A DNA stretch of 64,000 bases from an uncultured delta proteobacterium (GCA_963745835.1 CAVUZH010000014.1:544001-608000), one strand, 5' to 3'. Shown: positions 5,490 through 56,260, counted from the stretch's first letter. A program made the numbers and translations. The notes: generated by a model not told the origin, from the letters alone.

Positions 5490-5843
5490 TCAGGAAAGTA
5501 AACGTCGAAGCGACTCGAGATCTTTCTTGATCTTTGCTAGAGCGGTTTTGTACTTCTGATCGGATAGCGGAAGCTTCAGCTGGTCTTTTTCTTCTTTTTT
5601 GACTTCTTTCAGCTTCTTACGGGCGCCTTCAATTGTAAAGCCTTCGGTATAAAGGAGGCGCTTAATGTTTAACAGAAGCTCGACATCTTTCTTCTTGTAG
5701 AGACGATGGCGCGAAGGCGCCTTGGAAGGCTTGAGCAGGTCGAATTCAGTCTCCCAGTAACGCAATACGTAAGGCTCGACACCGACAATCTCGCTGACTT
5801 CGCCGATCTTGAAATAGATCTTGTCCGGCAATGATGTGGTCAT
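5490..5843 (-). CDS. MerR-family transcriptional regulator
   Basis: [27 protein letters not shown]; usual position after ihfA. Confidence 0.9.
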
Positions 5844-6167: not shown

Positions 6168-6188
6168 TCCTTTCCCTCGCAGTTCGGT

Positions 6189-9412: not shown

Positions 9413-9772
9413 TTAGGCATCGAGGCTGGATTTGGCTCGCTGGGCCAGCTGACTGAATCCGTCCATATCGGCAACCGCGATTTCGGCCAGGACTTTTCTG
9501 TCGATCTCGACTCTGGCCTGTTTCAAACCTTTGATCAACTGACTGTACGAAAGCCCATTAAGTTTTGCAGCCGCTCCGATGCGAGTAATCCACAGACCGC
9601 GAAAAGTCCTTTTCTTTACCCGACGATCTCGATAAGCGAATGCTAAAGCTCTCTCGACTGTTTCGCGCGCAGACCGGTATAGTCGGCCCCGCCCCCCAAC
9701 ATAACCCTTGGCCATTTTCATGACCTTTTTTCTTCTCTGCCGGGTTTTACTCCCGCCTTTAGCTCGTGGCAA
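9413..9772 (-). CDS. rplT: 50S ribosomal protein L20
   Basis: MPRAKGG, AYRDRRVKKRTFRGLWITRI. Confidence 0.97.
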   Translation of the reverse strand: MPRAKGGSKTRQRRKKVMKMAKGYVGGRGRLYRSARETVERALAFAYRDRRVKKRTFRGLWITRIGAAAKLNGLSYSQLIKGLKQARVEIDRKVLAEIAVADMDGFSQLAQRAKSSLDA

Positions 9773-9809
9773 TGCTAGCTCCCTTCTATTATTGTGGAAT
9801 GAAGACTAT

Positions 9810-40757: not shown

Positions 40758-40805
40758 GAGTTGCCCGAGCAAAATCCAGCTTCAATCGAAATAGAGGAGC
40801 ACTTC

Positions 40806-41837
40806 ATGAAAGCTTATTTAGTCGTTGACGCCGATGGACACGTCGAAGAATCATCGAAAGGACTGCAAAAATATTTAAAGCCGGAAAATCGCGGCCGCCC
40901 GCTCTGGACCAGCGACTCCTGGGATCGCAATTTCGGCGGCGCCCTTGGCAAGGTCAATGAAGACCCTCGTGTGCAACTCGAAGACATGGACGCCGACGGC
41001 ATCGATGTCCAGGTGGTCTACCCGACGCGCGGAATTTCACTTAGCGCGGCGAGAGAAGTGGATTTGGCGGTGGATCTCGCCCGCGCGTACAACGATTGGC
41101 TGGCCGATTTCTGTTCGGTCAATCCCGCGCGGCTCAAAGGGGTCGCGCTGGTTGCGCTCCAGGACGTAAACGCCGCTATCGCGGAGGCGCGCCGCGCAGT
41201 CGAACAACTGGGCTTCATCGGTGTGATGATGCCGACCAATGTGCTCGATCAGGATATCGGCCACAAACAATTCTGGCCGTTTTACGAAGAGGTCGAGAGA
41301 CTCGGGGTTGGCCTCGGATTTCACGGCGGCATTCGCGCTTCGCAACGAATGCACGGCCGATTCGGCAGCTTCATTGCGGTCCATACATTGGCGTTTCCCC
41401 TCGAGTGCATGGTCGCTCTTACCGGGATGATTTATGCCGGCGTGCCGGAGCTCTTCCCGAAGCTGCGAGTCGCCGCTCTGGAAGCGAGCTGTGGGTGGGT
41501 TCCGTTCCTGATGGACCGGATGGACGAGGAGTTTGAAAAACGCGGCAGCAGAGAAGCGCCCCTACTCAAGGCAAAACCGAGCGAGTACATGACCAACGGC
41601 CAATTCTACTATGCGTTTGAACTGGAAGAATCGACCTTGCCCTATGTTGCCGAGCGAGTAGGATCCGACAAATTGCTCTACTCGTCGGATTACCCTCATT
41701 GGGATACGTCATGGCCCAACACCGTGCGCACTGTAAGAGAACGGGATGATATTACCGAAGCGCAAAAGAAACAATTTTTATCAGACAATGTTCAGAGCTT
41801 TTACGGCTTCACAGCAAAGGCATCGAACTCCGTATAG
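40806..41837 (+). CDS. amidohydrolase-2 family protein
   Basis: VDADGHVEE, DMDADGID, AYNDWL, LEASCGWVP, YSSDYPHWD. Confidence 0.9.
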   Translation: MKAYLVVDADGHVEESSKGLQKYLKPENRGRPLWTSDSWDRNFGGALGKVNEDPRVQLEDMDADGIDVQVVYPTRGISLSAAREVDLAVDLARAYNDWLADFCSVNPARLKGVALVALQDVNAAIAEARRAVEQLGFIGVMMPTNVLDQDIGHKQFWPFYEEVERLGVGLGFHGGIRASQRMHGRFGSFIAVHTLAFPLECMVALTGMIYAGVPELFPKLRVAALEASCGWVPFLMDRMDEEFEKRGSREAPLLKAKPSEYMTNGQFYYAFELEESTLPYVAERVGSDKLLYSSDYPHWDTSWPNTVRTVRERDDITEAQKKQFLSDNVQSFYGFTAKASNSV

Positions 41838-41902
41838 CGGTGTATCAAACGATAGCAACAAACGGCCGGTGACCGCCGATTTCTCTTAAGCTTTTCATGC
41901 CT

Positions 41903-43024
41903 CTAAGCCCAGAGAACGGCTGCAGTTTTGGTAACTAGCTCCAGTTTACTCCGTTGGTTCTCAAGTGAAATATTGTTGCCGACGATCGAGGAGGCAAAGC
42001 CGCACTGTGGACTGATAGCCAAACGTTCTAGCGGAACATATCGAGTCGCTTCAGTCACCTTCTCTGTTAGTGACGCCAACGACTCGAGCTCAGGATTCTT
42101 CGTTGTGATCAAGCCGAGAACTATGATCTTGTCTTCAGGCACTTCTCTGAGGGCCTCAAACGAGCCCGAGCGCTCGTCGTCATATTCCAAGAGCAAGCGC
42201 TGTGGCTTTAGCTTGCGAAACAATTCGCCGCTGATAGCTTCATATCCTCCCTGCGACAGCCAACGGCTGCCTTGGTTGCCGCGTCAGACGTGAAACCCGA
42301 AAGTCACATCGCCAAATCCGTCCACCACCGCGTTGTCCAGCTCGATGCCTAAAGAGAGCCACTGGTTAAGACTCCAGCCAAGGTTTTCGTAGAAGGCTCG
42401 CGTTTTGGCATCGAGCAAGAGGCCATAATGCGGCGCGTCGATTTGAATGTAAGTGGCGCCGAGGCGCACGAGTTCGGCAACCTCCTCGCGCAGGATGCTG
42501 ACGATGTCGGCGAGAAACGCATCGAGTGTGGGATACGCCGTTCGCGAATATTTTGGCGACCAAAAATTGGCCCATAGTGTCGGGCTCGGAATGGTCACTT
42601 TGGGAATTCGGCTGGTCTTTTTCTTAAGGTAGGAAAATTCATCGGCTGAGAGATATCGACGACGGCTCAACTTTTCGACCACACCCAACTTATCTGGCCG
42701 CGGGTGACGATGCACACCCAGTGAGTCGTACCAGTCGCCCCAAAGAAAAGCATCAAGCCCGAACGCACCGAAACCGTCGACCGCTGCCGTCATTTGACTC
42801 TGAAACGATTGCCGCCGCATCTCGCCATCGGTAACAATCTCCAATCCGGCATTTTCTTGCAAGGCAATCGCCTCGTCGACGGCGTGATCCTCGATTTCCT
42901 TAAATTGCACCGTGCTGAGAGTGCCGGCGGCGAGTTGTTTTTGCGCGGCAACCAACTCCGCAGGTCGCAGAAGACTTCCCACCACATCGGCATGAACCCT
43001 AACAGGCTGCTGAAAAAGACCCAT
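41903..43024 (-). CDS. cobalamin-independent methionine synthase II family protein, predicted selenoprotein (TGA 42284-42286 = Sec)
   Basis: two listed ORFs share one frame and join as FGFHV-U-RGNQGSRWLSQGGYE; TGA aligns with the Zn-ligand Cys of HLCRGN in the paralogue; SECIS-like hairpin follows. Confidence 0.82.
42255..42271 (-). promoter_or_regulatory. SECIS-like hairpin
   Basis: GGCAGCC-GTT-GGCTGTC; loop G is the 20th nt after TGA. Confidence 0.7.
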
Positions 43025-43052
43025 AGGGTTCGTTGCGTTCAATCGTCTCGCT
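43003..43052 (+). repeat. MITE-like dispersed repeat, partial copy overlapping the gene start
   Basis: CAGGCTGCTGAAAAAGACCCATAGGGTTCGTTGCGTTCAATCGTCTCGCT aligns with 22056-22106. Confidence 0.65.
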
Positions 43053-43057
43053 CAATC

Positions 43058-43125
43058 CGTGTTCGTGATACGCGTGTTCGTGTTCGCTCGGAATTCTCGA
43101 TCACGTTTTCACGCACACGAGCACG
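43058..43125. repeat. REP-like palindrome
   Basis: CGTGTTCGTG...CACGAGCACG inverted pair with iterated CGTGTT units. Confidence 0.5.
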
Positions 43126-43140
43126 ATCGTCCGGTGTCTT

Positions 43141-44129
43141 TCACGGCCGAATTTTATACTTTCGCTCGATCTCTTCGACATAGCCGCTTTTGACTACCTT
43201 TTCGAGAATGCGCTGATCGAGAAGATCCTCGACGTTGTATTTCGCTATTTTGGGATCACGCAGCGCGACGATCTCCTGCACGGTTTTCAAGCCTTTGACC
43301 GTCACAAAGGTATACGACGTCAGATCATCGAGGAGAAGCTTGTATCCTGTTTCTGCGAGTTGCCTGTCTGTCTTGATATGTTTCTGCAGAACGGCGACAC
43401 CCTTTTCTTTCTGAGCGCGCATAACCGCACTCGCTTCTATCATCGCTTTAATAAAGTTCTCAACCGTCTGAGGATTTTTTTGAATGAAAGACTCCGCGCT
43501 CATATAAGGGCTGGAAGGAAGAGCGATCCGGCTCAAATCTAGCAGCACTTTGACCCCTAGGCCTTGGAGCCGCACCGATTGCAATTTATCCAAAGCGGCT
43601 CCGTCGATAATCCCGTTGCCAGAGCTTGGGCGATCACAGTGCTATCGCCAATCGCCTGGATACTGATGTTATCCCTCTGAGGATCCAATCCCATTTCTCT
43701 CAGCGACAACATAGTAAGGCTCCAGAGAAGCCCGCTGAAATCCTGTACGCCGACTTTTTTACCTCTCAGGTCGCGCGGATTGGTAATCGAAGGCGATACC
43801 AAAAAATCGTAGGACGCTCTTTCGGCGAACAGTGACAAGAGAATTTTGAGCTTCGCCCCCTGCGCCGCGGCGGAAAGCATACTCGACGCGCTGCCACGGA
43901 CAAACTGCACCTCATTAGAGACCAGAGCCGAAACTTGCAGAGGCGCGCTGCGGACGGTGACAAGATCCGCCTCCAATCCATGCTTGGCAAAGATTCCTTC
44001 GTCCTTGGCAAGCCAGAGAGGAGTCCCCGCCGCAGCCACACCGGAGTACGCAACTCTGATGGACTCGGCCTGAAGCGGTGAAGCAAACAGAACCACAGCT
44101 ATAATGATCGAGAATGTTTTGGCAAGCAT
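43141..44129 (-). pseudogene. NMT1/SsuA-like substrate-binding protein, frameshifted near 43610
   Basis: signal peptide, PLWLAKDEGIFAKHGL, DLRGKKVG; C-terminal half in an adjacent frame. Confidence 0.8.
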
Positions 44130-44560
44130 AGATCATCCTCCTCGAAATTGCTTCTAGAGAATTTTCTACGAGGAACCGCGACATCCGTCATCAGCTTCGA
44201 ATTTTGAGTGAAGCAACAGATCTGATCCGTACATACTCGTCAGCGCTTACGGAATCAAGAAATTTCTTGTCGAGGTTGCCGATGGTAGAACAGCGCGAAG
44301 GATCCATAAAGCCAAATCAAATGTCCCCAAACACCGGTTCACACAAGAGACGCAGTATAATTCCATGAGAAAGTTTGTTGGGTTCTTTTTTCCGTTGTCA
44401 AGATGTCAGTACGAGGATGGTTTACACGCATGTATTGAATCGCGGCGGACGAGGGGTGCGAAGTCCGGTCGACAGCTTAGGAGCCGGGCTCGACGGTCAT
44501 TTCGATGATTATAATATACGGAAATAACTTTCGGCTTCTATCGGATGACTCGTTTATGTG

Positions 44561-44671
44561 CCTTTACAAGGTATTGTTCTAGTTGTAAAAGCGATTTAAC
44601 TCACACATATGAGCCACGCTATACAGAAGTTATAAAGTTCTATAAAGAACCAGATATTATTGGTTAGGCGG
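44561..44671 (+). other. putative attI / integron platform remnant
   Basis: AT-rich non-coding DNA ending in core site GTTAGGCGG (44663), the reverse complement of CCGCCTAAC at the first attC; short TATA(C/A)AG direct repeats; inverted repeat CCTTTACAA-N13-TTGTAAAAG. Confidence 0.5.
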
Positions 44672-44763
44672 CAGCGACGATTCGCGTTAAACTCTGCAGT
44701 CGACCTGTCGTGGAGACACAATGCTGATAGTCGCCTGTTTAATCGCGGCGATGGAGGAGCGAA

Positions 44764-45555
44764 ATGGCCGAAGACACGCAGCGTTTTAGCGATGGCACCG
44801 CATATGAGCAGTTCATGGGCCGCTGGACCCGTGCCATCGGTACGATCTTTCTCGATTGGCTCACACCGCCGGCTGATGCGCGCTGGCTCGATATCGGTTG
44901 TGGCACTGGAGTCTTTACCGATCTTATAGTCAGTACGTGCTCTCCCGCGACAGTAGTCGCGATCGATCCGTCGGAGCCACAAATCGAAATTGCGCGCAAG
45001 AAAGCAATCGCGCAACGCGTGGATTTCCGCGTTGCGGACGTGCAGGAATTACCGTTCTCAGATAAAGCCTTCGACGTCGTTGTTTCCGCTCTCGTGATTA
45101 ACTTTATATCGGATCCACCTCAGGCGCTTACTCAAATGTGCCGCGTTTGTCGGCCCCATGGTGTAATCGCCGGCTATGTTTGGGATTTCGCGGCGCAGCG
45201 TGGGCCGGTTGAGCTGATTCGGAACGGATTGCATCAGGTCGGCGCTAAAAATCCGCCTCACCCGGGCACCGAGCATTCGGGGCTTGATGCATTAACTTCG
45301 TTGTTTGCTCGAGCGAAATTAACAGAGATCGGCAGCAGGACGATCGATGTTACGATGTCCTTTGCGGATTTCAACGAATTTTGGGTGTCGCAAACGCCTA
45401 GTTATACTCCCATGGGCAAGAGGATTGCAGCGCTGTCGGAGACGGATCGTGAGAAGGTGATTGACTGGGTACGCGCAAGATTGCCAGCTGGCCCCGATGG
45501 CCGCATCACTTATTCAGCGCGGGCCAATGCGATCAAGGCGCTTGCACCTGCGTGA
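44764..45555 (+). CDS. class I SAM-dependent methyltransferase (cassette 1)
   Basis: YEQFMGRW, WLDIGCGTG, LPFSDKAFD, AGYVWDF. Confidence 0.9.
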   Translation: MAEDTQRFSDGTAYEQFMGRWTRAIGTIFLDWLTPPADARWLDIGCGTGVFTDLIVSTCSPATVVAIDPSEPQIEIARKKAIAQRVDFRVADVQELPFSDKAFDVVVSALVINFISDPPQALTQMCRVCRPHGVIAGYVWDFAAQRGPVELIRNGLHQVGAKNPPHPGTEHSGLDALTSLFARAKLTEIGSRTIDVTMSFADFNEFWVSQTPSYTPMGKRIAALSETDREKVIDWVRARLPAGPDGRITYSARANAIKALAPA

Positions 45556-45593
45556 TTTTACCTACGTTCAGGAACTGCGAATTTGCAACGTCC

Positions 45594-45674
45594 GCCTAAC
45601 AAACGGCTTGAGAAGGACCTTCGACCCGCTCGCTCCGCTCGCTGGCCTCGCCCTCTCAGCCCGATACGTTAGGC
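45594..45674 (+). mobile_element. attC site 1
   Basis: GCCTAAC...GGCTTGAGA...TCTCAGCC...GTTAGGC. Confidence 0.88.
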
Positions 45675-45913
45675 GGAGGTAACTTGCGACATGGACGGCA
45701 TCGTGCTCTCCGCGGGAAACTTCGAGAAGTACATTGATCGACGTCAGCGATAGCGCATACGCATGATCGAGGGGAGGGTGACGGTCATGTCCGATGTAAC
45801 TTCGATGCTTGCAGCCAATCTTGTCGAGGCCTTCAAACAACTCAATCAGTTTGTGACGCTGGGGCCTTGTAACCTCAATATCGGCTCTAGCGCTTGATTA
45901 CCAAGAAAAGCCA

Positions 45914-46321
45914 GTGGGTCGCCGGAACGACCCGAGTTCCACGCCTGATGAAAAAGTGGCGGTCGTGGGAGGCTTTGCCCCTGTATCGCGAGAGGCCGCG
46001 CAACTTCTCTTCGTTGGCGTCTCCTACGTAGCCGCACTGATGGGATCCTATTCCCTGCAGAGCGCCTCGTACATCGTCGGTAGGCTGGGCGTTTCTACAC
46101 CGATGGTCGAAGCAGCCTGCACCTACTCGAGCGTTGCTACTGGGCCCGTCGGCATCCGAGTCGCCGGCGCCGGACTACCGGCCGTATTCGTTGGCCTGGT
46201 CATCGGGAGGAAGTGGTGGAGGCTACGCGAGCCCGGCCTGTTCTGGATGCTTGCCATCTTCGTCGGTACGTACGCAATTCTTGGCTTCGGCGTGGTCCGC
46301 GTGCCATGCACGCCCCATTGA
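45914..46321 (+). CDS. hypothetical membrane protein (cassette 2, possibly degenerate)
   Basis: three hydrophobic segments; start uncertain. Confidence 0.4.
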   Translation: MGRRNDPSSTPDEKVAVVGGFAPVSREAAQLLFVGVSYVAALMGSYSLQSASYIVGRLGVSTPMVEAACTYSSVATGPVGIRVAGAGLPAVFVGLVIGRKWWRLREPGLFWMLAIFVGTYAILGFGVVRVPCTPH

Positions 46322-46405
46322 CGCTGTTCGAGCTGGCGCTTGCCTCTAGACGCGACAAGTTCGGGAACGACGTGAGAGCGGACCCGCGGTCTCGGCAGAC
46401 TGGAA

Positions 46406-46447
46406 GCCCAACGAGGGCGCTCGCGGCTGAGCACTTGTCCGTTAGCA
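46406..46447 (+). mobile_element. attC site 2 (shortened)
   Basis: GCCCAAC...GCGGCTGAGC...GTTAGCA; left arm apparently deleted. Confidence 0.5.
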
Positions 46448-46475
46448 CTATGTAATGAACGACGTATCCTAATCC

Positions 46476-47131
46476 ATGCAGCATTCCGAGAAATGTGTTT
46501 ATTGCGGTGACAATCCGAGAATTACCGCTGATCATGTGCCGCCGAAAAGCTTTTTCCCACAACCGAGACCTTCAAATCTGATCACTGTTCCGGCCTGCCA
46601 AAAGTGTAATTCGGATGCTGGGAAGGATGAAGACTATTTTTTAGCAACTTTCATGTTCAGCGAGGCAGGAATTACTGACGCTGGCAAAACCCTTTGGAAA
46701 CAACGACTAAATCGGATGTTCCACAAAAATTTAGGTCTCAAACGAAGAATTGCGAAGGGGTTGTCTTACAGGCCGGTGGTTACACCGACGGGAATTTACT
46801 TGGGCCGCCGGATGGGATTGCAATTCGACGAACAACGGTTTGGACGTGTGGTTCAAAAAATATTCGTGGTCTTTATTACTTTGAATATGGAGAAGCCCTG
46901 GCAGCCCGGACCGAAGTAATGACATTATTTTTGAGCACGAAAGCCCGTTTTGAAACTGCTGTAGGTTACGCTAGTCAACTTGGTTGGGGGAGGCGACAGT
47001 GGCCGGGTATCTTCGAGTACCGTTGCGGTCGCGTGCCTGATGTTCCACAGGAGTCGGTCTGGCTGATGAGATGTTACACCAATGCTCATTTTTGGGCTAT
47101 ATCTGGACCAGATAAAGCGCTGGAAAAATAA
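46476..47131 (+). pseudogene. HNH-like zinc-binding protein (cassette 3), frameshifted near 46860
   Basis: CVYCG...TADHVPPK...LITVPACQKCN; continues IRGLYYFE in the adjacent frame after an A-run. Confidence 0.7.
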
Positions 47132-47132
47132 C

Positions 47133-47190
47133 GCCTAACCAATCGCTTCAGACCGATCGCTAAGAGCGCCGCCTGAGCGTGGCGTTAGAC
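47133..47190 (+). mobile_element. attC site 3
   Basis: GCCTAAC...CGCTTCAG...CTGAGCG...GTTAGAC, 58 nt, starting 2 nt after the stop codon. Confidence 0.85.
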
Positions 47191-47231
47191 GGCATTCTCT
47201 GAGAATCCACTCTCTTCAATAGGAGTAGACG

Positions 47232-48128
47232 ATGAGATTATTCAGTCGAAACGCAGGGGTGGCGATTCTATGTCTTTTGCTGGTATCCGCGACCGGATTC
47301 GCACAGGACAAGTTTTTCGATTCGAACGGGGTGCGCATTCAATATGTGGACCATGGGAGTGGAGATGCAATCGTCCTGCTTCATGGCGACGGGGGCACAC
47401 TCAACACCTGGATCGATTCGGGCGTGCTGCCAAATCTGGCACAAGATTACCGAGTCATCGCTTTTGACACCCGCGGCTCTGGCAAGAGCGGAAAGCCACG
47501 CGACGTGAAAGCCTATGGACGCGAGCAGGGCCTGGATGTCATCCGCCTGCTGAATCATCTCGGGATTCGAAGAGCACACATCATTGGTTACTCGATGGGG
47601 GCGCACACCACGGCGCAATTGTTGACGACTCATGCCGAACGGTTCATTAGCGCCACGCTCGGCGGTGCCGCCGGCAGGTTTCGGTGGACCGACGAACAGG
47701 CTGCGGGTGCGGAGCAAGAGGCGTCGGAAAGCGAGCGTGAGTGTGTGAGTCGCAGCCAGATTTACCGCCTTGCGCCCACCAATGCACCCAAGCCGGACGA
47801 GGAGGCGATCAGGCGGTTGTCAGCGGTGTGTATGGCTAATCCCAACGAAGATCGATTTGCACGGGCGGCACGGACGCGCTCACGGAAGGATTACGTCATC
47901 ACGCCCACACAGGTCGCAAGCGTGAAAGTGCCGACTCTCGGTATCGTCGGTAGTCTCGATGGATACCTGACGGATTTTCAGGAATTGAGGAAGTTGCGGC
48001 CGGAAGTGAAGCTCGTGGTCATCGATGGTGCCACGCATGGTGGGGCTCGTTGGGCGGGTCGTCGACCCGAGTTCATCGCCGCCGTTCGCGAGTTCATCGG
48101 CTCGAATCGAACTCCATCGTCGCATTGA
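47232..48128 (+). CDS. secreted alpha/beta hydrolase (cassette 4)
   Basis: signal peptide, VLLHG, DTRGSG, nucleophile GYSMG, GSLD, GATH; AGGAG RBS. Confidence 0.88.
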   Translation: MRLFSRNAGVAILCLLLVSATGFAQDKFFDSNGVRIQYVDHGSGDAIVLLHGDGGTLNTWIDSGVLPNLAQDYRVIAFDTRGSGKSGKPRDVKAYGREQGLDVIRLLNHLGIRRAHIIGYSMGAHTTAQLLTTHAERFISATLGGAAGRFRWTDEQAAGAEQEASESERECVSRSQIYRLAPTNAPKPDEEAIRRLSAVCMANPNEDRFARAARTRSRKDYVITPTQVASVKVPTLGIVGSLDGYLTDFQELRKLRPEVKLVVIDGATHGGARWAGRRPEFIAAVREFIGSNRTPSSH

Positions 48129-48135
48129 ACGAACC

Positions 48136-48202
48136 GTGTAACCACCGGCTGGAGAGTGACGCTCCGCGAGCGCAGCGGGCATCTCACCCGGACACGTTAG
48201 AC
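48136..48202 (+). mobile_element. attC site 4
   Basis: GTGTAAC...CCGGCTGGAGA...TCTCACCCGG...GTTAGAC. Confidence 0.8.
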
Positions 48203-48208
48203 GTTATC

Positions 48209-48690
48209 CTGAAAAGATGGAACGCTGTGTGTTTCTTTATTTGCTCGCCTTCTCTGCTAGTGGGATGTGGTCGAGCCGAGTACTCGGCAGAATACAATAT
48301 TCCAGACACGGAGCTCACCTTGCGAATCGACTTAAAGCAGATAAATCCGCCGCTTGCTGAGTACGAGAGGAGCCCTCGTCGTCATTCGCGCTGGATCGCT
48401 TCTTCAGAGTGTAGTGCTGACTTCCGATATAGGAGGATACAGCCTTCTCAACCTTTACAAACTGCCGAGCGGTGAGTACGTTTTGGATTATGACGGCAAT
48501 CCTGACTATCGTATTGATCCAAGAACTGGAACGGTACACGCCAAGTTGAGAGGAATACCTATAGGTGAACCGGACAGGCCACTCAGAGGAATCTATATTG
48601 GTGCGTGATTTCGACCACCACTATGTATGGCAATTTTGTCCGGCTTCGCTGCGCGCCGAACGCAAAGTTGGACTGCCTTATGCGCCGTAA
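48209..48690 (+). pseudogene. putative lipoprotein (cassette 5), two frameshifts
   Basis: lipobox LLVGC; segments LAEYER / DIGGYSLLNLY...YIGA / DFDHHYVWQF...PYAP* in three frames; final TAA abuts attC. Confidence 0.55.
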
Positions 48691-48778
48691 GTCTAACCCG
48701 CGCCTTAAGACTGATGTCGAGAATGCTCGCCTTTAAGGCTCGCTTCTTTCGCCACGGCTTAGCCGCATCGAGTTAGAC
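48691..48778 (+). mobile_element. attC site 5
   Basis: GTCTAAC...GTTAGAC, 88 nt; near-identical to attC 6 and 9. Confidence 0.9.
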
Positions 48779-48782
48779 CTCG

Positions 48783-49571
48783 ATGTCGTTCAAAGGAGGA
48801 CAAGTGACTTGTTATGCGGTACATCTCGGCGATTGTGCAGGAGGTCTCTCCAAGGAGCACTACGTGTCGGCGTCGGTTCTGGAGATCGCGGGGACGGCTG
48901 TTCAAGTTACGGGCTTTCCATGGCAACCGGGGGGTGAGACGGCGCAAATCGGTACTGCTTCGCTCGCGGCAAAAATCTTATGCAAGCATCATAACGAACA
49001 GCTCTCGCCTCTTGATTCGGTCGCGAAAGTATTTCTTTCTGGCCTGAAGGCGAGCTTTCAAGAGGCATCCGAGAATCGGTTGTCGAATAGCACGTATCAA
49101 ACTTCCGGCAGCTCCTTCGAGCTTTGGTTACTCAAAGTTCTCTGCGGATTACTGCCACTTTGGAAGGTCGCTGTCCCGCACACGTGGGTCGACATTCTTT
49201 TCCAGCGGAATCCCTGGCCCCCCGAAGCCGGGTTGCACATTTTCGGAACTCCTGGGGTTGCTAGCTGGTACTTTACACTTGTCAGGGTAATGTCGGTTAT
49301 GGCTACAGAGGACCCGAGCCGAATTGCAGGAGCGAAGTTCGGGATCGGAGGACTCGCGCTGCTTCTCGCCTTGGGCACACCTAGGTTTACCGAGCCAGGT
49401 ATGCAAGCGTTGTATAGGCCAGCAGGCTTATTAATTGAGAGAGACGGAAAACAGAATGAGCATGTGCTGTCGTGGGATGATCACGGCGCACATGGGACCA
49501 TGAACCTCCGAATAACCGGCGAGATAGCGAGCGGGGTGGGACCTCGGCCAATCGTTGAGCCGGCAGGCTAA
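48783..49571 (+). CDS. hypothetical protein with HNH-like Zn motif (cassette 6)
   Basis: CYA...C...LSKEHYVS...KILCKHHNEQLSPLD; stop TAA lies within R'' of attC 6. Confidence 0.7.
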   Translation: MSFKGGQVTCYAVHLGDCAGGLSKEHYVSASVLEIAGTAVQVTGFPWQPGGETAQIGTASLAAKILCKHHNEQLSPLDSVAKVFLSGLKASFQEASENRLSNSTYQTSGSSFELWLLKVLCGLLPLWKVAVPHTWVDILFQRNPWPPEAGLHIFGTPGVASWYFTLVRVMSVMATEDPSRIAGAKFGIGGLALLLALGTPRFTEPGMQALYRPAGLLIERDGKQNEHVLSWDDHGAHGTMNLRITGEIASGVGPRPIVEPAG

Positions 49572-49646
49572 CATGAAGACCGATGTCGAAACCGCTCGCC
49601 TTCAAGGCTCGCTTGTTCATCACGAATTAGCCGCATGGCGTTAGCT
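49566..49646 (+). mobile_element. attC site 6
   Basis: GGCTAAC...GTTAGCT; same family as attC 5 and 9, with a short deletion. Confidence 0.85.
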
Positions 49647-49649
49647 TTT

Positions 49650-50030
49650 ATGGATGACATTGCCGGTAAGATGAGAATCCCTGACTGGGAGTTCAGAGTT
49701 GTCATAGGAACGACGAAAATCGATTATGATCTAGATAAGGAATACTCGAATCGCGAGAAGCATGGCTATTCTCTTGCGAGCGCCGTTTCGCTGCTTGAGC
49801 GAATCGTGTTCCCGTTTGGAGAATCGCTACCGAGCATGACCAGCGATGGCTTCATGGAAGGAGGTGAGGTTCGCCACATGCACATGAGCGTGGATGACTC
49901 ATACAACGTAGTACTTATGGTGACGACCATGCGCGACGATGAAACCGTGAGGATCATTTCTTTTCGTCGAGCGAGTGAGGAAGAACGTGAGCAGTTCTAT
50001 CAGAACACGGGCTTTCGGGAGCGCGTATAG
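49650..50030 (+). CDS. BrnT-family (DUF497) toxin-like protein (cassette 7)
   Basis: DYDLDKEYSNREKHGYSL...VTTMRDDETVRIISFRRASEEER matches the WD..K...N..KHG / RIISARRA pattern. Confidence 0.78.
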   Translation: MDDIAGKMRIPDWEFRVVIGTTKIDYDLDKEYSNREKHGYSLASAVSLLERIVFPFGESLPSMTSDGFMEGGEVRHMHMSVDDSYNVVLMVTTMRDDETVRIISFRRASEEEREQFYQNTGFRERV

Positions 50031-50031
50031 A

Positions 50032-50116
50032 AGCTAACCCGCGCTGGAGCCGACCGCGAGATCCAGTGATAGATGGCTCAATTGTACACTAGCGGCTCAG
50101 CGGCATAACGTTAGAC
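50032..50116 (+). mobile_element. attC site 7
   Basis: AGCTAAC...GCTGGAGCCG...CGGCTCAGC...GTTAGAC; R'' AAGCTAAC complements cassette start GTTAGCTT. Confidence 0.88.
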
Positions 50117-50132
50117 TCAGGGGAGTGGCACT

Positions 50133-51014
50133 ATGCCTTTCAGCTACGTCCAATTCATGACCGAATTAATGGCCCCCAAACGTTATCCGCGGCAACCCGT
50201 TTTTGCACCACCCGGGCTGACCCCGTTACGTAAGTCGATTTCCCGATCAACCATCGGCATCTTCACCAGTGCTGGCATTCAACTTCGCAGCGATACGCCT
50301 TTGGCTGAGACCAATGACCTCTCCTACCGCCTCATTGATCGCGCCGTTCCTTACTCGGACCTAACTCTCGCCCACCAGACTCCCGTCAGGGTTTGGGCGC
50401 TGGAAGATTTAAATGTTGCGTTTCCGCGAGAACGGCTCGCCGATCTTGAAGCCGAGGGAACTATCGGCCGCTTGGCGTCGCGAGCTGTCTCCATGGTGGG
50501 CTCGATCACAACATTTACGGGGTTACTGGAAAAAGTCGTGCCTGCAATTCAACGAGAACTCGAGGACCAGGGTGTCGATCTGCTTTTTCTATTTCCTTTT
50601 TGACCCGCATATCATCGGTCCGTCGGACTGATCGCGAGAGCGCTCGAAGCAAGAGGATTGCCCACCTTGTGTATGAGCACCCTTTGGGAAAACAGCATGG
50701 CGTTTAAGCCGCCGCGCACGGTTTTTCTCGATTTTCCGCTGGGCTGCCCTGCTGGGAAACCGAATGAACCTGAATTGCAGCGCATGATCCTGCGTGCGGC
50801 TCTGGAAGCAGCACCTCTTTTTGGCGAGCCCTGGAGGATCGCGCAACTTCCTTTTCAATGGTCCGAGGACGGTAATCGGGATTGGGAAGAACGCGTTAGA
50901 GAACTCTATCGTAAAGGTTTAGGAACTGTGGAGGCCCATGTGGCCGATCATCAGGCGAAGGGCGAGTCTCTCGTCGGTCAAGAAAAGGAATTCGCAATTC
51001 GGTGTAATTGCTAA
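50133..51014 (+). CDS. GrdB/PrdB-like (glycine/D-proline reductase selenoprotein B family) protein, TGA 50601-50603 = Sec (cassette 8)
   Basis: GIFTSAG, DLNVAFPRERLADLEAEGTIG, LFPF-U-PAYHRSVGLIARALEARGLPT, PPRTVFLDFPLG; both listed ORFs in one frame, 293 aa; SECIS-like hairpin. Confidence 0.85.
50614..50632 (+). promoter_or_regulatory. SECIS-like hairpin
   Basis: ATCGGTCC-GTC-GGACTGAT; loop G is the 19th nt after TGA. Confidence 0.75.
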
Positions 51015-51048
51015 AAACCCGGGCTAAAGTCCGTTTATCAACAGACTT

Positions 51049-51130
51049 GTCTAACAATCGGCTTGAGACAGACTTTCGGACCCGCTCGGCTTTGCTCGCT
51101 GGCCGCGAACTGCTCATCCTTGCGTTAGAC
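51049..51130 (+). mobile_element. attC site 8
   Basis: GTCTAAC...GTTAGAC; similar to attC 1. Confidence 0.88.
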
Positions 51131-51171
51131 AGAGAACGGCCGTGCGGTATGCTTCCCTGAGTCGAAGGTTT

Positions 51172-51386
51172 ATGAAGAATGAGTTTACCGCGATCATCGA
51201 ACGCAATGGAGATTGGTATATCGCCTATGTCCTGAGATTCCTGGCGCAAATGGGCAGGCTCGAACCAAGGATGAAGCTCGGGAAAATTTAGCCGAAGCTA
51301 TCGAACTGATTCTTGAGGACCGGCGAGAGGATGCGCTCCGTGGAGTTCCGCCCGACGCGATTCGCGAGACCGTTACGCTCAAATGA
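51172..51386 (+). pseudogene. hicB: HicB-family antitoxin with a 1-nt deletion (cassette 9)
   Basis: MKNEFTAIIERNGDWYIAY/(C)PEIPGANGQARTKDEARENLAEAIELIL; 215 nt, one base short of 72 codons; not in the ORF track. Confidence 0.8.
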
Positions 51387-51556
51387 AACGGAGCACGCTG
51401 CTCCAGCACTTGCGCAGGCACGGCTGTTCTCACTCGTTCTGGACGAACCCAGCGAGCGGCGCCGTGGAAGCGATCCCGCGTCACACCGAGATTTCCAACC
51501 GCCTTGCCAGGAAAATTTGTCGAAGTCTTTCCATACCGCAAATTGGCGAGGAGTAA
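51383..51556 (+). CDS. hicA: HicA-family toxin with an apparent in-frame deletion (cassette 9)
   Basis: MKRSTLLQHLRRHGCSHSFWTNPASGAVEAIPRHTEISNRLARKICRSLSIP; ATGA overlap with hicB; lacks the usual LxREG segment before the His. Confidence 0.75.
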   Translation: MKRSTLLQHLRRHGCSHSFWTNPASGAVEAIPRHTEISNRLARKICRSLSIPQIGEE

Positions 51557-51561
51557 TTCCC

Positions 51562-51648
51562 GTCTAACCCGCGGCTTAAGAACGATGTCGAAACCGCTTA
51601 CCTTCAAGGCTCACTTGTTCATCACGGCTTAGCCGCAGCGCGTTATAC
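51562..51648 (+). mobile_element. attC site 9
   Basis: GTCTAAC..GCGGCTTAAG...CTTAGCCGC...GTTATAC. Confidence 0.9.
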
Positions 51649-51667
51649 GCTACTTTGATTCTTCTCT

Positions 51668-52294
51668 ATGATCCCGCTTGATTTCCTCTCCGTGTATTTC
51701 ACAGCATCGCTCTTATTGGCCCTAGCACCGGGACCCGACAACATGTTCGTTTTGACGCAAGCTGCGATTCGAGGGTGGCGTGCGGGACTGGCGATTACCA
51801 TTGGCTTGTGCACGGGTTTGTTGGTGCATACCGCCGCAGTGGCGTTCGGAGTTGCCGCAATTTTTCAAGCATCTACGGTTGCGTTCACCGGCCTCAAGTT
51901 AATCGGAGCGGCATATCTTTTGTATCTGGCATGGCAAGCTTTTCATGCTCCCGCCGAATCGCTGGAACTTACGACTGGACCGGCTATGGCGCTTTTTCCT
52001 TTGTATCGCCGCGGAATTGTCATGAACATTACCAATCCGAAAGTGTCAATTTTCTTTTTGGCCTTCTTGCCTCAGTTCGCCGATCCTTCTCGAGGATTGT
52101 TAGCATTTCAAATGATTGTCCTGGGGATCGTTTTTATGATTGCGGCGGTATTGGTTTTTACTTTTATTAGCGTGATGGCCGGTGCCATAGGGAGCCGACT
52201 ACGGAGCAGGCCATCTGTTCAGATCTACATGAATAAGATCGCAGGAGTCATATTTGCGGCGCTAGCCGTTAAACTAGCTTTTGCAAAGAGATAG
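51668..52294 (+). CDS. LysE/RhtB-family translocator (cassette 10)
   Basis: LAPGPDN, LKLIGAAYLLYLAW, NITNPKVSIFFLAFLPQF. Confidence 0.92.
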   Translation: MIPLDFLSVYFTASLLLALAPGPDNMFVLTQAAIRGWRAGLAITIGLCTGLLVHTAAVAFGVAAIFQASTVAFTGLKLIGAAYLLYLAWQAFHAPAESLELTTGPAMALFPLYRRGIVMNITNPKVSIFFLAFLPQFADPSRGLLAFQMIVLGIVFMIAAVLVFTFISVMAGAIGSRLRSRPSVQIYMNKIAGVIFAALAVKLAFAKR

Positions 52295-52295
52295 C

Positions 52296-52347
52296 GTATA
52301 ACATTCGATCGAGCCGACGAGACCGCGGGTCATCGTTAACGTTAGCC
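52296..52347 (+). mobile_element. attC site 10
   Basis: AGCGTATAAC is the exact reverse complement of cassette start GTTATACGCT; ends GTTAGCC. Confidence 0.8.
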
Positions 52348-52363
52348 GGACAAGAGACAGAAT

Positions 52364-52915
52364 GTGGAACCCCTAATTGATGCCATTCAGAGAGACCTGC
52401 TAGATCCCAAGACCCTTATCGGAGCGTTGGTTTGGGGCGTCGTGTTCATTGGTATTGCGGCCGTACTAGCGGCCGGGGTTCGCAAGTTTGCTCAGCGCGT
52501 CGAGTCACACCTGTCGGACGTTACTGGACTTCGATTTACCAGCGCATTTGCCCAGGTGGTGGTATACGTGGTGGCGTTTATCTTGTATAGCCATCTCATC
52601 CCTGAGCTGCGCACACTTGGAACAACACTTCTCACGGGCGTCGGCATCGCTTCTGTGGTTCTTGGTCTTGCTGCCCAGAATACGCTGGGCAATCTGGTCG
52701 CAGGAGTATCGCTGGTGCTTTACAGGCCCATCCGAATAGGCGACAACCTGCAGCTGAATACTCCAAGGGGGCTAACGACTGCGACTGTGGGGGTGATCTC
52801 TCTCGGTTATACTGTTCTTCGTGATGCTGACAGCCACGAGATAATTGTCCCTAACAGCGTGATGGGTAGCAGCGTAGTCATTCGGCTCAGTGGATATTCC
52901 AATACCGCCGGCTAA
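52364..52915 (+). CDS. small MscS-family mechanosensitive channel protein (cassette 11)
   Basis: GLAAQNTLGNLVAG, RPIRIGD, IIVPNS; stop lies within R'' of attC 11. Confidence 0.85.
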   Translation: MEPLIDAIQRDLLDPKTLIGALVWGVVFIGIAAVLAAGVRKFAQRVESHLSDVTGLRFTSAFAQVVVYVVAFILYSHLIPELRTLGTTLLTGVGIASVVLGLAAQNTLGNLVAGVSLVLYRPIRIGDNLQLNTPRGLTTATVGVISLGYTVLRDADSHEIIVPNSVMGSSVVIRLSGYSNTAG

Positions 52916-52980
52916 TAAGGCGCTGCAGCTGACGGCCAACCCGCTACGCGGCATGTCCGCAGCTGACTTGATCGTTTACG
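52910..52980 (+). mobile_element. attC site 11 (degenerate right end)
   Basis: CCGGCTAAT complements cassette start GTTAGCCGG; GCGCTGCAGCTGAC...GCAGCTGA; ends GTTTACG. Confidence 0.7.
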
Positions 52981-53061
52981 CGGACGTGAACAATAGTGAA
53001 CGAGAGTACATTGGAGAGGTGTCTTCATTGTTGGCGGGAAACGCCGTCAGCTCGCGCCGCT

Positions 53062-53224
53062 TTCCGTCATTGGCAAGGCAATCGAAGACGGACGCTGTTC
53101 AAAAGACAACGAAGACTACCGCCACTTCGAGCTGCTGTTTGGCGAAGTGGAAGCGCGCCACTCCCTCACCATGTTCGCCTATGTCTTGACGCCTAATCAT
53201 CTCCATCAACTAAACAAAGCCTGA
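53062..53224 (+). pseudogene. fragment of an HUH (Y1/RAYT, IS200-like) transposase
   Basis: QGNRRRTLFK/DNEDYRHF...LTMFAYVLTPNHLHQL across one frameshift; HUH motif NHLH. Confidence 0.65.
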
Positions 53225-53277: not shown

Positions 53278-54274
53278 TTAAGGCTTTTTGTTTTTAAGAT
53301 TGTCGATGAAACCGCGCTCGTCGAGTTCTTTGATAAATTGGCTGTCGATGAAATCCTCCGGCTTTGCCTCTTTAGCTTTGGGATTGTCCGCCACCAGCGA
53401 GTCAATTACGGTCTTGAGGCCCGGTTGCGACGGATACTGCTTTGCCGGAAACGTGTGCTCCGTGACTGAAGCGTCGTAACTCTTCTCGAGCAGTTCCTGA
53501 TCGGACGTGCCACCCATGTATTTTGCCTAGGACCTTGAGCCCGGTGGCTCGTTCGCTTTTCATCAGATGTACAGCCTCGATTTGTGACTTGACGTATCGT
53601 CTCACCACCTCGGGCTTATCGTTGATGAATTTCCGCGTCGTCACCACGCCATTATTTTGAAACGGCAATGTGCCCAAGTCGGCCAGCACATTGAAACCTT
53701 CTCGCTGAGCTACGAAGGTCGTGGGCGGATTGAGCAAAGTCGCTTGTATTTTTCCGCTCCTAAGAGCGATCAAGCGTTCAGGCGTGCCGCCGATGACGAT
53801 CACGGAAGTGTCTTTACCAGGCACGAGTCCAAGTTTTCTCAAAACAAGCTGGGTGGCTGTGGCTGAAGCCCCGGTAAGTCCGGAGACGCCTAACAGCCCG
53901 CCTTTAAGCTGCTCTGCCGATTTGATATCGCGTTGGCTCATGAGCCAATATTCAAAGCCGACGTATCCGGCAGCGACGTAGACGGTGCCGAAGCCTCTCA
54001 GGTTACTCTGTACGACTGCCGGAGCAGCGCCTTGAATCATATTCAGCTCTCCCGAAAGCAGCGCCATCACCGAAGTCGCAGCCTGGGCGCGAATCAGCTG
54101 AACATCCAAACCATTTCTGCTAAAGATCCCGGTTTCTTTCGCAACCCACACCGGAAGTTGCGTCGGACCCACGCCGGTATAGCTGACCGTGACCTTGAGC
54201 GCTTGCCCGGCAGCGGTTGAAACGGCACTAAAGAAGCCGATGACACAGATTAAATTAAAGATAACCCATTGCAC
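53278..54274 (-). pseudogene. NMT1/SsuA-like substrate-binding protein, frameshifted near 53520
   Basis: LPVWVAKETGIFSRNGLDV, GGTPERLIAL; C-terminus KPEDFIDSQFIKELD in the adjacent frame. Confidence 0.8.
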
Positions 54275-54322
54275 CGTTGCGTCTCCTCACTTAGATAACC
54301 AACGACATGACACGAGTTCGGC

Positions 54323-55105
54323 TCAGACCGCCCACCCTTCTTCTGATAACTCTAAATGAGTTCCATCAGGATCTTTTAGCGACATCGTCTTGTAGGGACC
54401 CTCAAATACGGTCGCGCTCGATGGCCAGCGGCGCCTCGCCTTTGTAGGTCAGACCCGCGCGCCTCTTTCAATCGCTCCTCGACCTGCTCAATGCTGTTCA
54501 CTTGAAATCCTAATACCTGAAGGCCTTCGCGCGGCACCGGCGGGTTCATGATCAAGCCCAGATTGATGGTGCCGTCCGAGAGATAGATTGCCCGGCTCTC
54601 GGTTCGCGGGTTATCCATTCTGTCGACTTCCTTCATGGAGAAAATATATTTATAAAACTCGGCGAGACGTTCGGGATTATTAGTTTTGATACCGACGTAT
54701 CTTACACCGGGAAGATTTTTATCATCCCTCGTTCCCCATCCTCGTTCCGCGACATCAACACCGTTGCCATCGGGATCCAGAATACGAACCTCGGTGTAAC
54801 GGCCATCGTTTGGCCTGGAACCCAAGCTGATTGGCGGATCGAGCTGACTAAGCTTGCTTTTTGATCTCATTGAGGCTATCGACTTTAAAACCAAAGTGGT
54901 TGATGCCGACATCTCTTTTTACTTCGGCGATCGTTTGATGGATTTGTAAGCAGTTGAGATTGAAATAGCCATCGGTCACGTAGAAGGCATACGGGCTGTT
55001 TTGCTCTTCATTCCAGACCTCCTCCATCCCCAAGATCAATTGATAGAACCGCGCAAGGCGACGGTTGTTATTGGTGCAATTGGCCATATGTCTTATCTCG
55101 GACAT
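54323..55105 (-). pseudogene. two-domain VOC-family protein with several frameshifts
   Basis: IRHMA...LARFY, GINHFGFKV, DPDGNGVDV, LSDGTINL, KDPDGTHLELSEEGW; GGAGG RBS. Confidence 0.72.
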
Positions 55106-55172
55106 TTTTTACCTCCCGATCACTTCAGGCTTGTAAGTTTATAAAATTTACGGCGTCGTTAATTTCAGCCCG

Positions 55173-55247
55173 ACATTACGTTAGCGCGAACGATGCCGTC
55201 AAGACCACTACGCATGTTTGACTATTGGATCAGCTCGGAACTATGAT
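55173..55247. promoter_or_regulatory. divergent sigma-70-like promoters
   Basis: minus TTGACG-N18-TAATGT (55173-55202); plus TTGACT-N18-TATGAT (55218-55247). Confidence 0.45.
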
Positions 55248-55315
55248 CTGGCACTACCGCTCGAACAACCGTGCTGGCGTAATCTCATCAGCACGATGTA
55301 GAAGGTAAAGCTCGA

Positions 55316-56260
55316 ATGAAAAGAAAACTGCTCATTACTATCTCGCTGCTGTTTATTTCTGCCAAACTTACGAGCGCCGCCGAGCTGCAGGTCATCACCG
55401 TCGCGCTCGTCTCGCCGAGTTGGAGTACCGGGCTGCCAACGGCGGTCGCTCGGGGCGCCGGCTTCTTTAGAAATGAAGGCTTAGAGGTTCGGCCGGTGAC
55501 ACTCGCCAGCAGTGGCCCCATCATGATGGCTTTACTGATGAGCGGCCAGGCTGAAATGGTTATCGCCGGCGGCGTCGCGATTTTGCGGGGCATTGCCCGA
55601 GGCGCACCTGTCGTCGTCGTTGGCGGACATCTGAGCAGGATGAGCTATGCGTTGATCGGCGCCAAGGGTTTGAAGACTGTGGACGACCTCAAGGGCAAGG
55701 CGATAGGAATTACCGGCATCGGCGGCATAGGGGAATTTGCCGTTGTCGAATCGCTTAAGCGAAACGGGTTGGTCAAGGACCGTGACTTCACCCTGCTCAA
55801 TATAGAGGGAGGCACGGCAGCAAGGATGGCGGCCCTCAAGGCCGGCAAGGTGCACGCAGTGCCGGTGACACCAGGGCAGCGAGTACAGGCTGAGAATGAC
55901 GGATTTACGATTATTCTTGATGTGAGAGATTCGCTTGCGGATCTTCCGTCGAACATTGTCGCGTCGACGAAAGAGTTTGCCAAGTCCAACCCGGACAAAA
56001 CGATTCGCTTTCTAAGGGCTCTCGGCAGGGCTGTAGATTTAATTCGGCAGGATAAGGATAAGGCGATAGCGCTGGGCAAGACTAATGGCTTGCGTGGAGA
56101 CGCAGCGATGGAACGAAAAGCGCTCGATTATTATGTTCAGGATCTGGACATCCGCATCAACAAAAACAATGTCGAGGCTCTGTTGAAATTGCTTGACATC
56201 GCGGATCCTCCTGAAAAATTCTTCGATGATACTTATCTAAGCCGAGCCCTTGCTCGATAA
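55316..56260 (+). CDS. ABC-type substrate-binding protein (NMT1/SsuA-like)
   Basis: signal peptide, GFFRNEGLEV, DDLKGKAIG, GGTAARMAAL. Confidence 0.85.
   Translation: MKRKLLITISLLFISAKLTSAAELQVITVALVSPSWSTGLPTAVARGAGFFRNEGLEVRPVTLASSGPIMMALLMSGQAEMVIAGGVAILRGIARGAPVVVVGGHLSRMSYALIGAKGLKTVDDLKGKAIGITGIGGIGEFAVVESLKRNGLVKDRDFTLLNIEGGTAARMAALKAGKVHAVPVTPGQRVQAENDGFTIILDVRDSLADLPSNIVASTKEFAKSNPDKTIRFLRALGRAVDLIRQDKDKAIALGKTNGLRGDAAMERKALDYYVQDLDIRINKNNVEALLKLLDIADPPEKFFDDTYLSRALAR

Follow-up and report, generated by a model that had tools for sequence, protein, structure and literature searches.

The DNA analysed here is a 64-kb stretch from the genome of an uncultured delta proteobacterium (G000:C14:544001-608000, where G000 denotes this genome). 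We refer to the whole stretch as the window, and positions are counted within it unless another contig is named. Between two chromosomal flanks the window holds an array of eleven gene cassettes of the integron type, each with its own recombination site (attC), and a short 3' remnant of an integron integrase gene (intI) lies just upstream. The first cassette begins at GTTAGGCGG, at position 44663, with a GTTAGGC core. The eleven attC sites are imperfect palindromes on the + strand, spread over 45594-52980, and each runs from an R'' core of the RYYYAAC type to an R' core of the GTTRRRY type. The main open reading frame (ORF) of every cassette is on the + strand upstream of its own attC, and the functions of the genes are unrelated. 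A first, sequence-only reading of this DNA had reported eleven palindromic sites of 42-88 nucleotides (nt) between co-oriented, functionally unrelated genes. This organization was confirmed, with site lengths of 52-102 nt when both 7-nt cores are counted.

Recombination sites and cassette ends

In an attC site an unpaired spacer separates the R''/R' helix from the L''/L' helix, and the R''-L'' arm carries additional bases. We trained an attC covariance model, R1, on 22 sites of three other genomes; it is distinct from IntegronFinder's own model. Fifteen of the training sites came from the approximately 29-kb array on G023:C4, beside intI fragments; a further six follow a broken intI in G006:C19, and the last follows an intact intI in G015:C137. 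The consensus fold of these 22 sites contained 13 pairs, 6 of them with compensatory changes, and consisted of the R''/R' helix, the unpaired spacer and the L''/L' helix. Its two single-base bulges were both located in the R''-L'' arm, and the window sites could be aligned to this consensus structure. When the whole 64-kb window was searched with filters off, R1 recovered 8 of the 11 sites at E ≤ 0.022 and attC11 as a ninth at E 0.59. All nine matches were on the + strand and had ends identical to the manually assigned coordinates, and the best match in the window outside the array had an E value of 2.9. The sequence-only reading had named the rejection of most sites by a covariance model as an outcome that would speak against it; R1 accepted eight of the eleven. 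A scan of the window against Rfam, which has no attC family, detected two tRNAs only.

The site attC1 (45594-45674) matched R1 with 64.7 bits (E 5.7e-14), attC3 (47133-47190) with 35.6 bits (E 1.2e-6), attC4 (48136-48202) with 26.3 bits (E 2.6e-4), attC5 (48691-48778) with 38.4 bits, attC7 (50032-50116) with 31.4 bits (E 1.4e-5) and attC8 (51049-51130) with 41.5 bits. The R' core of attC9 (51562-51648) reads GTTATAC, and this site reached 38.9 bits; the short attC10 (52296-52347), with R'' GTATAAC, reached 18.6 bits (E 0.022). The remaining three sites look decayed. In attC2 (46346-46447) R'' is disrupted and reads CTAGAC; R1 did not find the site at E ≤ 10, and pairing of the ends persists when the bottom strand is folded. 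A gap in the alignment shows that attC6 (49566-49646) is short of about 7 nt in its L'' arm, and it too was not found by R1 at E ≤ 10. The match of attC11 (52910-52980; R'' GGCTAAT, R' GTTTACG) was weak, at 12.9 bits.

Because cassettes are inserted and excised by cutting at G|TT, the R'' of a cassette should resemble the core with which that cassette begins, rather than the one with which it ends. Each R'' was reverse-complemented and scored, at 9 variable positions per cassette, against the cassette's own start and against the R' of the same site. Over the 11 cassettes there were 57 matches out of 99 with the own cassette start and 47 out of 99 with the same-site R', and 90 of 10000 random re-pairings reached 57 matches, so the pairing exceeds chance. 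Most of the signal was supplied by cassettes 1, 7, 10 and 11, whose cores depart from the consensus and whose ends pair over 10 of 12, 11 of 12, 11 of 12 and 8 of 9 letters, respectively. For example, the start of cassette 10, GTTATACGCT, matches its end, AGCGTATAAC. The core pairs quoted for the same four cassettes in the sequence-only reading are all present in the sequence.

Folding energies showed the bottom strand to be more stable than the top strand in 9 of the 11 sites, and arm alignments revealed extra bases in the R''-L'' arm for most of the window sites. The relatives' consensus fold, with its two 1-nt bulges, corresponds to the textbook anatomy of attC. For six window sites of similar length RNAalifold returned the R''/R' helix only, and a column-pair dynamic programme applied to the same alignment was discarded after it gave an incoherent structure. 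Also discarded was a strict scan for RYYYAAC...GTTRRRY, which proved unspecific: it matched 11 places on either strand of the window, of which several lay beyond the array, and captured 4 of the 11 array sites. An arm-complementarity score was dropped for the genome census, since the known sites scored 9-22, no match at all reached the threshold of 26 and the background was not separated. In the genome, an nhmmer profile of the 11 window sites found two extra sites only, and blastn with the same sites pointed to 6 further places. A scan for terminators found no excess over shuffled sequences.

Integrase remnant, conserved flanks and differing cassettes

The intI stub is located at 44369-44479 on the + strand and was detected with tblastn and with the integron integrase model TIGR02249. 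It is a pseudogene that retains the last ~35-37 codons, including the YTHVLNRGG region, and the ORF fragment at 44375-44527 contains DVSTRMVYTHVLNRGGRGVRSPVD. TIGR02249 matched at 44399-44479 with positions 289-315 of its 315 (27.9 bits; cut-off 265). The intact 360-amino-acid IntI of a same-genus relative (G002:C328) matched at 44369-44479 with residues 325-357 only (24 of 37 identical, E 3e-10), and the rest of this protein gave no tblastn match within 43000-45000. At the DNA level the stub is ~82-83% identical to intI 3' ends of G002. It is followed by an attI-like spacer (44480-44669, + strand), recognized by alignment with relatives, that ends in the first crossover core, GTTAGGC (44663-44669). 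A GTTAG-type core lies ~170-200 nt past the intI end in G006:C19, G002:C328 and G015:C137, and the distance from the window stub is the same. In G006:C19 a broken intI, a spacer, GTTAGGC and at least seven attC sites follow each other on one strand; in G015:C137 an intact intI is followed downstream, on the same strand, by an attC7-like site. Since the stub and the attI-like junction are on the cassette strand, the array is what a once complete integron of co-oriented layout has left behind.

Next to the array no intact intI was detected; the left flank there continues directly into chromosomal genes conserved in the relatives G004 and G005. In the own genome (7.28 Mb) no intI exceeded the TIGR02249 cut-off, the best score being 86 bits against 265, for a Xer-like gene, and tblastn with the G002 IntI detected C-terminal stubs and Xer-like matches of 27-31% identity, nothing else. 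Neither G004 nor G005 has an intI over the TIGR02249 cut-off; among the 31 genomes of the order, G000 included, a match over the cut-off is present in six, one of which is the unpublished G012. The sequence-only reading had described the array as having no integrase. This stands as far as a working intI is concerned and has to be amended for the 37-codon 3' stub and the attI-like junction, which lie directly upstream on the same strand.

The position of the array is conserved in relatives that carry other cassettes. In the same-genus genome G004 the left flank is homologous without a break from 40001 to 44655, through the stub, and the contig ends 8 bases before the first core. This alignment is continuous across the upstream breakpoint of the stub at 84% identity, and a right-flank contig of G004 matches from 53217. 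In G005, another species of the genus, the left flank matches to 44315, a recognisable piece of the stub is kept, and the right flank matches from 53206. Flank identity of both genomes to the window is 84-94%. G004 and G005 share 1.69 kb of cassettes (88% identity) that are absent from the window locus, and R1 detected three attC sites in the G005 contig. As read from their translations, these cassettes would contain a STAS-like ORF, an AI-2E-permease-like ORF and a small ORF; a 79% identical copy of the AI-2E-permease-like ORF is present elsewhere in G000, on C22. When the cassette DNA of the window was compared with 30 relatives, only attC-sized matches, hicBA homologues (in several genomes) and selenoprotein homologues (in G002 and G023) were obtained. 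Cassette order, which the sequence-only reading had proposed to compare, is therefore not fixed: the same flanks enclose other cassettes in G004 and G005. The truncation is common to G000 and G004, so the deletion of intI predates the split from at least one sister species and the arrays diverged after the integrase was lost. Such divergence could be explained by an IntI acting in trans, by replacement through the flanks or by differential loss.

Evidence from outside assembled genomes was provided by soil metagenomes. Parts of the stretch are held by 20 public runs from 8 studies, and we compared contigs of four runs (X1, X5, X7 and X9) from four studies; parts of the array without contig cover in X1, X5 and X9 were not counted as evidence. 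A 4703-nt contig of X1 corresponds to 44561-49263 with 7 differences and confirms the order from attI to cassette 6. Three cassettes were found in other contexts. A 995-nt contig of X5 contains cassette 1 (44665-45555, 50 differences in 891 nt) between stretches of unlike letters, 75 in front and 29 behind. A contig of X9 contains cassette 4 from 47187, with 4 differences in 554 nt and 129 unlike letters before it, and a contig of X7 contains cassette 6 from 48779, with 8 differences in 636 nt, placed behind an attC3-like site that departs from attC3 in its second half. In all three cases the context breaks within or beside the R' core, and breaks at this core in other contexts are what cassette-wise mobility predicts. 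Loose contig ends cluster at attC1, attC3, attC5 and attC8. Cassette-skipping joints (45660>50093, 45661>47136, 47178>50093 and 50114>51059) were considered as excision products and rejected; their shorter side has 23-26 letters and lies inside attC, and they were treated as cross-matches between attC sites of other organisms.

Further integron remnants were observed in the own genome. A genome-wide R1 census at E ≤ 0.01 counted at least 19 sites, of which the window array contributes 6; with 150 of 1740 first-look candidates scored, the figure is a lower bound. The window array is the largest among the genome arrays found. A second decayed co-oriented integron is located at C14:1-12000 (L035), with an intI stub at 9668-9790 on the − strand (90% over 41 residues to the G002 IntI) and, downstream on the same strand at 848-7482, four R1 attC sites at E < 1e-4 and four weaker ones; the C14 contig starts inside or near the array of this integron. 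A third stub, at C18:529107-529262, has one attC just downstream (locus 528183-529262). Other IntI-like C-terminal stubs were seen at C3:391951-392088, C16:16051-16242 and C14:423637-423810, which like the C18 stub have 40-50% identity to the G002 IntI, and smaller attC clusters are present on C13, C15 and C16. In a sister family, the G023 locus that supplied training sites (G023:C4:147000-185000, L037/L038) is a large array with near-identical 79-nt attC sites over ~29 kb; its intI fragments lie at C4:148772-151187, and among its cassettes is a hicBA one with homology to the window's cassette 9.

On both sides of the window array (39753-44129 and 53402-56260) several paralogous genes for periplasmic substrate-binding-like proteins were observed. 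Some of those in the left flank are apparently split (43141-43593 and 43557-44129, − strand), and the gene in the right flank has ~66% identical copies elsewhere in the genome. The left flank also contains, at 43000-43130, a dispersed repeat of ~53 nt, or ~127 nt as a double unit, with 73 blastn matches in the own genome and many copies of 80-92% identity in most relatives. It overlaps the start of the − strand ORF 42284-43042, its minus-strand RNA folds into two hairpins (z -2.6), and it looks like a repetitive extragenic palindromic (REP) element or a miniature inverted-repeat transposable element (MITE).

Cassette genes and the selenoprotein cassette

All eleven cassettes and the fragment that follows them are read on the + strand. 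Cassette 1 (44664-45674) contains an ORF for a class I S-adenosylmethionine-dependent methyltransferase at 44764-45555 (Pfam Methyltransf_11, 90.6 bits). Cassette 2 (45669-46447) contains a hydrophobic ORF of 135 amino acids at 45914-46321, for which neither Pfam nor NCBIfam gave a match. In cassette 3 (46442-47190) an HNH-like gene is split by a frameshift into 46476-46919 and 46694-47131. It scored 21.8 bits with Pfam HNH (cut-off 21.4) and 26.2 bits with HNH_5 (cut-off 27.5), and the X1 contig spans the frameshift without a gap. An alpha/beta hydrolase gene (47232-48128; Pfam Abhydrolase_1, 70.4 bits) occupies cassette 4 (47185-48202). Cassette 5 (48197-48778) has a small ORF in two frames, at about 48227-48475 and 48354-48608, with no family match; the X9 contig has one base fewer at 48373, which would join the frames, and the X1 contig agrees with the window. 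The ORF of cassette 6 (48773-49646; ORF 48783-49571, 262 amino acids) had no Pfam match at E ≤ 5. In the Atlas it fell among clusters of hypothetical proteins, where the nearest named lead was HNH_5 on 13% of the members of one cluster, which is a weak one. The idea that cassettes 3 and 6 encode two related HNH proteins was not borne out, as BLASTP between the two products gave no meaningful similarity. Of the two HNH-like proteins listed in the sequence-only reading, only that of the frameshifted cassette 3 gene is backed by Pfam, and marginally so.

Cassette 7 (49641-50116) encodes a BrnT-family toxin (49635-50030) that passed the Pfam cut-off (BrnT_toxin, 40.7 bits; cut-off 34.5). Its cassette, of 470 nt, holds no BrnA partner and leaves no room for one. 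Cassette 9 (51125-51648) contains a hicB-like gene in two frames (51142-51386) and a HicA-like ORF (51383-51556). In comparison with three of three homologues one base is missing from hicB after 51227, and the X1 and X7 contigs show the same sequence as the window. HicB_lk_antitox (18 bits) and HicA_toxin (16.3 bits) both scored below the cut-off of 27, so that an intact HicAB pair is not recognized. Of the toxin genes attributed to the array earlier, that for BrnT was substantiated by its family score, and the HicA-like ORF was left below the cut-off. Cassette 10 (51643-52347) encodes an exporter of the LysE/RhtB family (51668-52294; Pfam LysE, 123.6 bits) and cassette 11 (52342-52980) a short MscS-like channel protein (52364-52915; Pfam MS_channel_2nd, 35.2 bits). 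A terminal fragment of 242 nt (52975-53216), with no attC of its own and no family match, occupies the interval from the last attC to the conserved right flank. A guess that it is a piece of an IS200/RAYT-type transposase had no Pfam support and was dropped. No cassette matched an antibiotic resistance family above cut-off. The decay of the locus comprises damage to three attC sites, frameshifts in hicB, in the HNH-like gene and in cassette 5, and the truncation of intI, a tally that fits an element no longer maintained.

Cassette 8 (50111-51130) carries a gene of the PrdB/GrdB selenoprotein family at 50133-51014. An in-frame TGA at 50601-50603 forms codon 157, and the read-through product has 293 residues. 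Its scores were 122.7 bits with NCBIfam PrdB TIGR04483 (cut-off 300), 34.7 bits with TIGR01917 (cut-off 602) and 22.6 bits with Pfam GRDB; being below the equivalog cut-offs, the predicted product is classed as a relative of the PrdB/GrdB family only. The TGA is in frame in seven of eight homologous loci (52-88% identical to the window copy), where the protein is conserved before and after it, and the eighth, L047, has Cys at the selenocysteine (Sec) position, in P-F-C-P-A-C-H-R. An 8-bp hairpin with a G-first loop is located at 50614-50632, 10 nt past the UGA, and was present in three of three sequences with one compensatory pair; it is a candidate Sec insertion sequence (SECIS). The own genome encodes Sec machinery: a tRNA-Sec at C13:203502-203596 and selA, selB and selD, all over their cut-offs, at C22:65479-70161. 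The selD match itself (C22:69235-70161) has one in-frame TGA, and SelD may be a selenoprotein in this genome. The conserved TGA, the Cys homologue and the conserved hairpin support well the selenoprotein that the sequence-only reading had placed among the cargo.

Like selenoprotein B of the GrdB/PrdB type, the product of cassette 8 has significant similarity to the family models, an in-frame UGA belonging to a U-x-x-C motif in its homologues and a Cys-containing homologue. It differs in scoring 122.7 bits in place of the required 300, in having no other reductase subunits beside it, in lying inside an integron cassette and in its motif, which in the window (50604-50615) reads U-P-A-Y, in place of the U/C-P-A-C of all eight homologues. 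Judged by this alignment, the array copy may have lost the resolving cysteine. None of the eight homologous loci had an R1 attC match at E ≤ 0.3, and an attC-like palindrome was seen by eye downstream of the G002 copy. A literature search for integrons together with selenocysteine or selenoproteins, with supplements outside its reach, returned no report of a selenoprotein cassette.

Origin and present state of the array

We conclude with high confidence that the region is the remnant of a sedentary chromosomal integron whose integrase and cassettes were co-oriented (the 'inverted integrase' type), and that it is now a cluster of attC sites lacking integron-integrase (CALIN) by the IntegronFinder definition (Cury et al. 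2016, PMC4889954). The sequence-only reading, in which IntI assembled an array that now has no working integrase, agrees with the cores, the end pairing, the attC fold and the R1 matches, and further with the differing arrays between the same flanks and the cassettes in other metagenome contexts. From established integron biology we infer how the array was built. In the original layout intI would have pointed in the same direction as the cassettes, with attI ~170-200 nt past its stop codon. IntI would have inserted circular cassettes at attI, recombining attC as a folded bottom strand with the cut at G|TT, and would have excised them by attC x attC recombination. A deletion then removed intI except for its last ~35 codons and left attI, the eleven cassettes and the terminal fragment as a CALIN. 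At present the array is probably largely frozen and decaying, with three attC sites damaged, three cassettes frameshifted and the Cys of the selenoprotein U-x-x-C motif apparently lost. Further movement of cassettes would need an IntI in trans, and none was found in the own assembly.

Comparison with described systems places the locus in the same way. Like the CALINs of Cury et al. (2016, PMC4889954), it has cassettes of diverse and partly unknown functions and attC sites that are heterogeneous in sequence and length; unlike them, it has eleven sites where the average given there is 5, and it keeps an attI-like junction and an intI stub. The pseudogene screen described in that paper would probably call nothing here, because the stub covers far less than the required 50% of the profile. 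The inverted integron-integrase group of the same paper is similar with respect to orientation, the stub and all cassettes being on one strand. Within our own comparison the resemblance to this layout extends to the first cassette, which begins ~170-200 nt past the end of intI, and to the order seen in G006 and G015 with a longer or intact intI; the difference is the truncated integrase of the window. With the sedentary chromosomal integrons of Vibrio, as portrayed by Boucher et al. (2006, PMC1382264), the array shares a chromosomal position between conserved flanks, toxin-antitoxin cassettes, many cassettes of unknown function and a content that varies between related species. It is much smaller than those integrons, its attC sites are heterogeneous and not near-identical, and it has no working integrase. 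A literature search linking integrons with Candidatus Binatia, the name of a same-genus relative, yielded nothing relevant.

Several observations weigh against this conclusion. Three of the eleven sites (attC2, attC6 and attC11) fail or nearly fail R1, and cassettes 2 and 3 show no end pairing (1 of 9 and 3 of 9 positions). The hairpin energies are modestly better than those of shuffled sequences (z -0.6 to -3.4), RNAalifold gave neither pairs nor a common fold when the 11 window sites were aligned with MAFFT, and no cassette promoter was identified, as sigma-70-like sites in the array were no commoner than in shuffles. These weak hairpins, the abundance of small dispersed repeats in the genome and the unspecific core-motif scans, with 11 matches per strand and several outside the array, would suit another class of intergenic repeat, such as REP-like elements or terminators standing between co-oriented genes. 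That the palindromes are of such a kind is nevertheless scarcely credible. A model trained beside integrase genes elsewhere recognizes them strand-specifically, their RYYYAAC and GTTRRRY cores pair across cassettes, homologous sites follow intI in G006 and G015, metagenome contexts break at the R' core, and the terminator scan gave no excess over shuffles. An array of true attC sites might also never have had its own integrase, having been built at a secondary site or moved by rearrangement, in which case the stub would be a fragment of an unrelated tyrosine recombinase or be there by chance. Cury et al. (2016, PMC4889954) name secondary-site insertion and rearrangement as possible origins of CALINs and report a recognisable neighbouring intI pseudogene for 15 of 279 of them, and the stub itself scores 27.9 bits only. 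We consider this origin very unlikely, though less so than the repeat explanation, for the stub matches the extreme C-terminus of an IntI-specific model and of a same-genus IntI (24 of 37), lies on the cassette strand, is ~82-83% identical in DNA to the G002 intI 3' ends, and is separated from the GTTAG core that starts the first cassette by the distance found in intact relatives.

The loss of activity is open to more doubt than the origin. The assembly in which no intact intI was found has 25 contigs, 97% completeness and 9% contamination, and an unassembled intI may for this reason exist. The locus could then be a working cassette bank, on whose attI and intact attC sites an IntI from unassembled DNA, a plasmid or a transient source acts in trans, so that cassettes are still shuffled. 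G004 shares the stub and its upstream breakpoint (84%) and yet has no cassette in common with the window, cassettes 4 and 6 occur at ~99% identity in other metagenome contexts, as if they had moved recently in some part of the community, and eight attC sites still fit R1. The sister arrays may, on the other hand, differ through allelic replacement via the flanks, deletion or differential loss, with no integrase activity after the truncation. The metagenome contigs are short and may come from other organisms, including ones with active integrons, and X1 may be the source sample of the window. Only intI stubs were found in 7.28 Mb, G004 and G005 have no intI over the cut-off, and selection seems to be relaxed, as three attC sites and three cassette genes have decayed. 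Continued shuffling in trans is accordingly judged unlikely, and we prefer the reading of the locus as an integron remnant that lost its integrase in place. A wider reading joins two points: a selenoprotein gene packaged as a cassette with a SECIS-like hairpin inside the gene, and short intI stubs as marks of CALIN origin by integrase loss, beside arrays whose divergence after this loss implies an IntI in trans. As a whole we offer it tentatively, at somewhat less than an even chance.

The element is of an ordinary kind, made a little unusual by its selenoprotein cassette. [quoted passage not shown] In co-oriented integrons the last codons of intI survive as short stubs beside the arrays, several of them in this genome alone, and such very short stubs can reveal an origin by integrase loss where standard pseudogene screens, with their 50% profile coverage, would miss it. 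How a chromosomal gene gains an attC is an open question in integron biology, and comparison of cassette 8 with its homologous loci could show this. Integron cassettes can, moreover, carry a gene that requires selenocysteine decoding and is useful only in hosts with Sec machinery.

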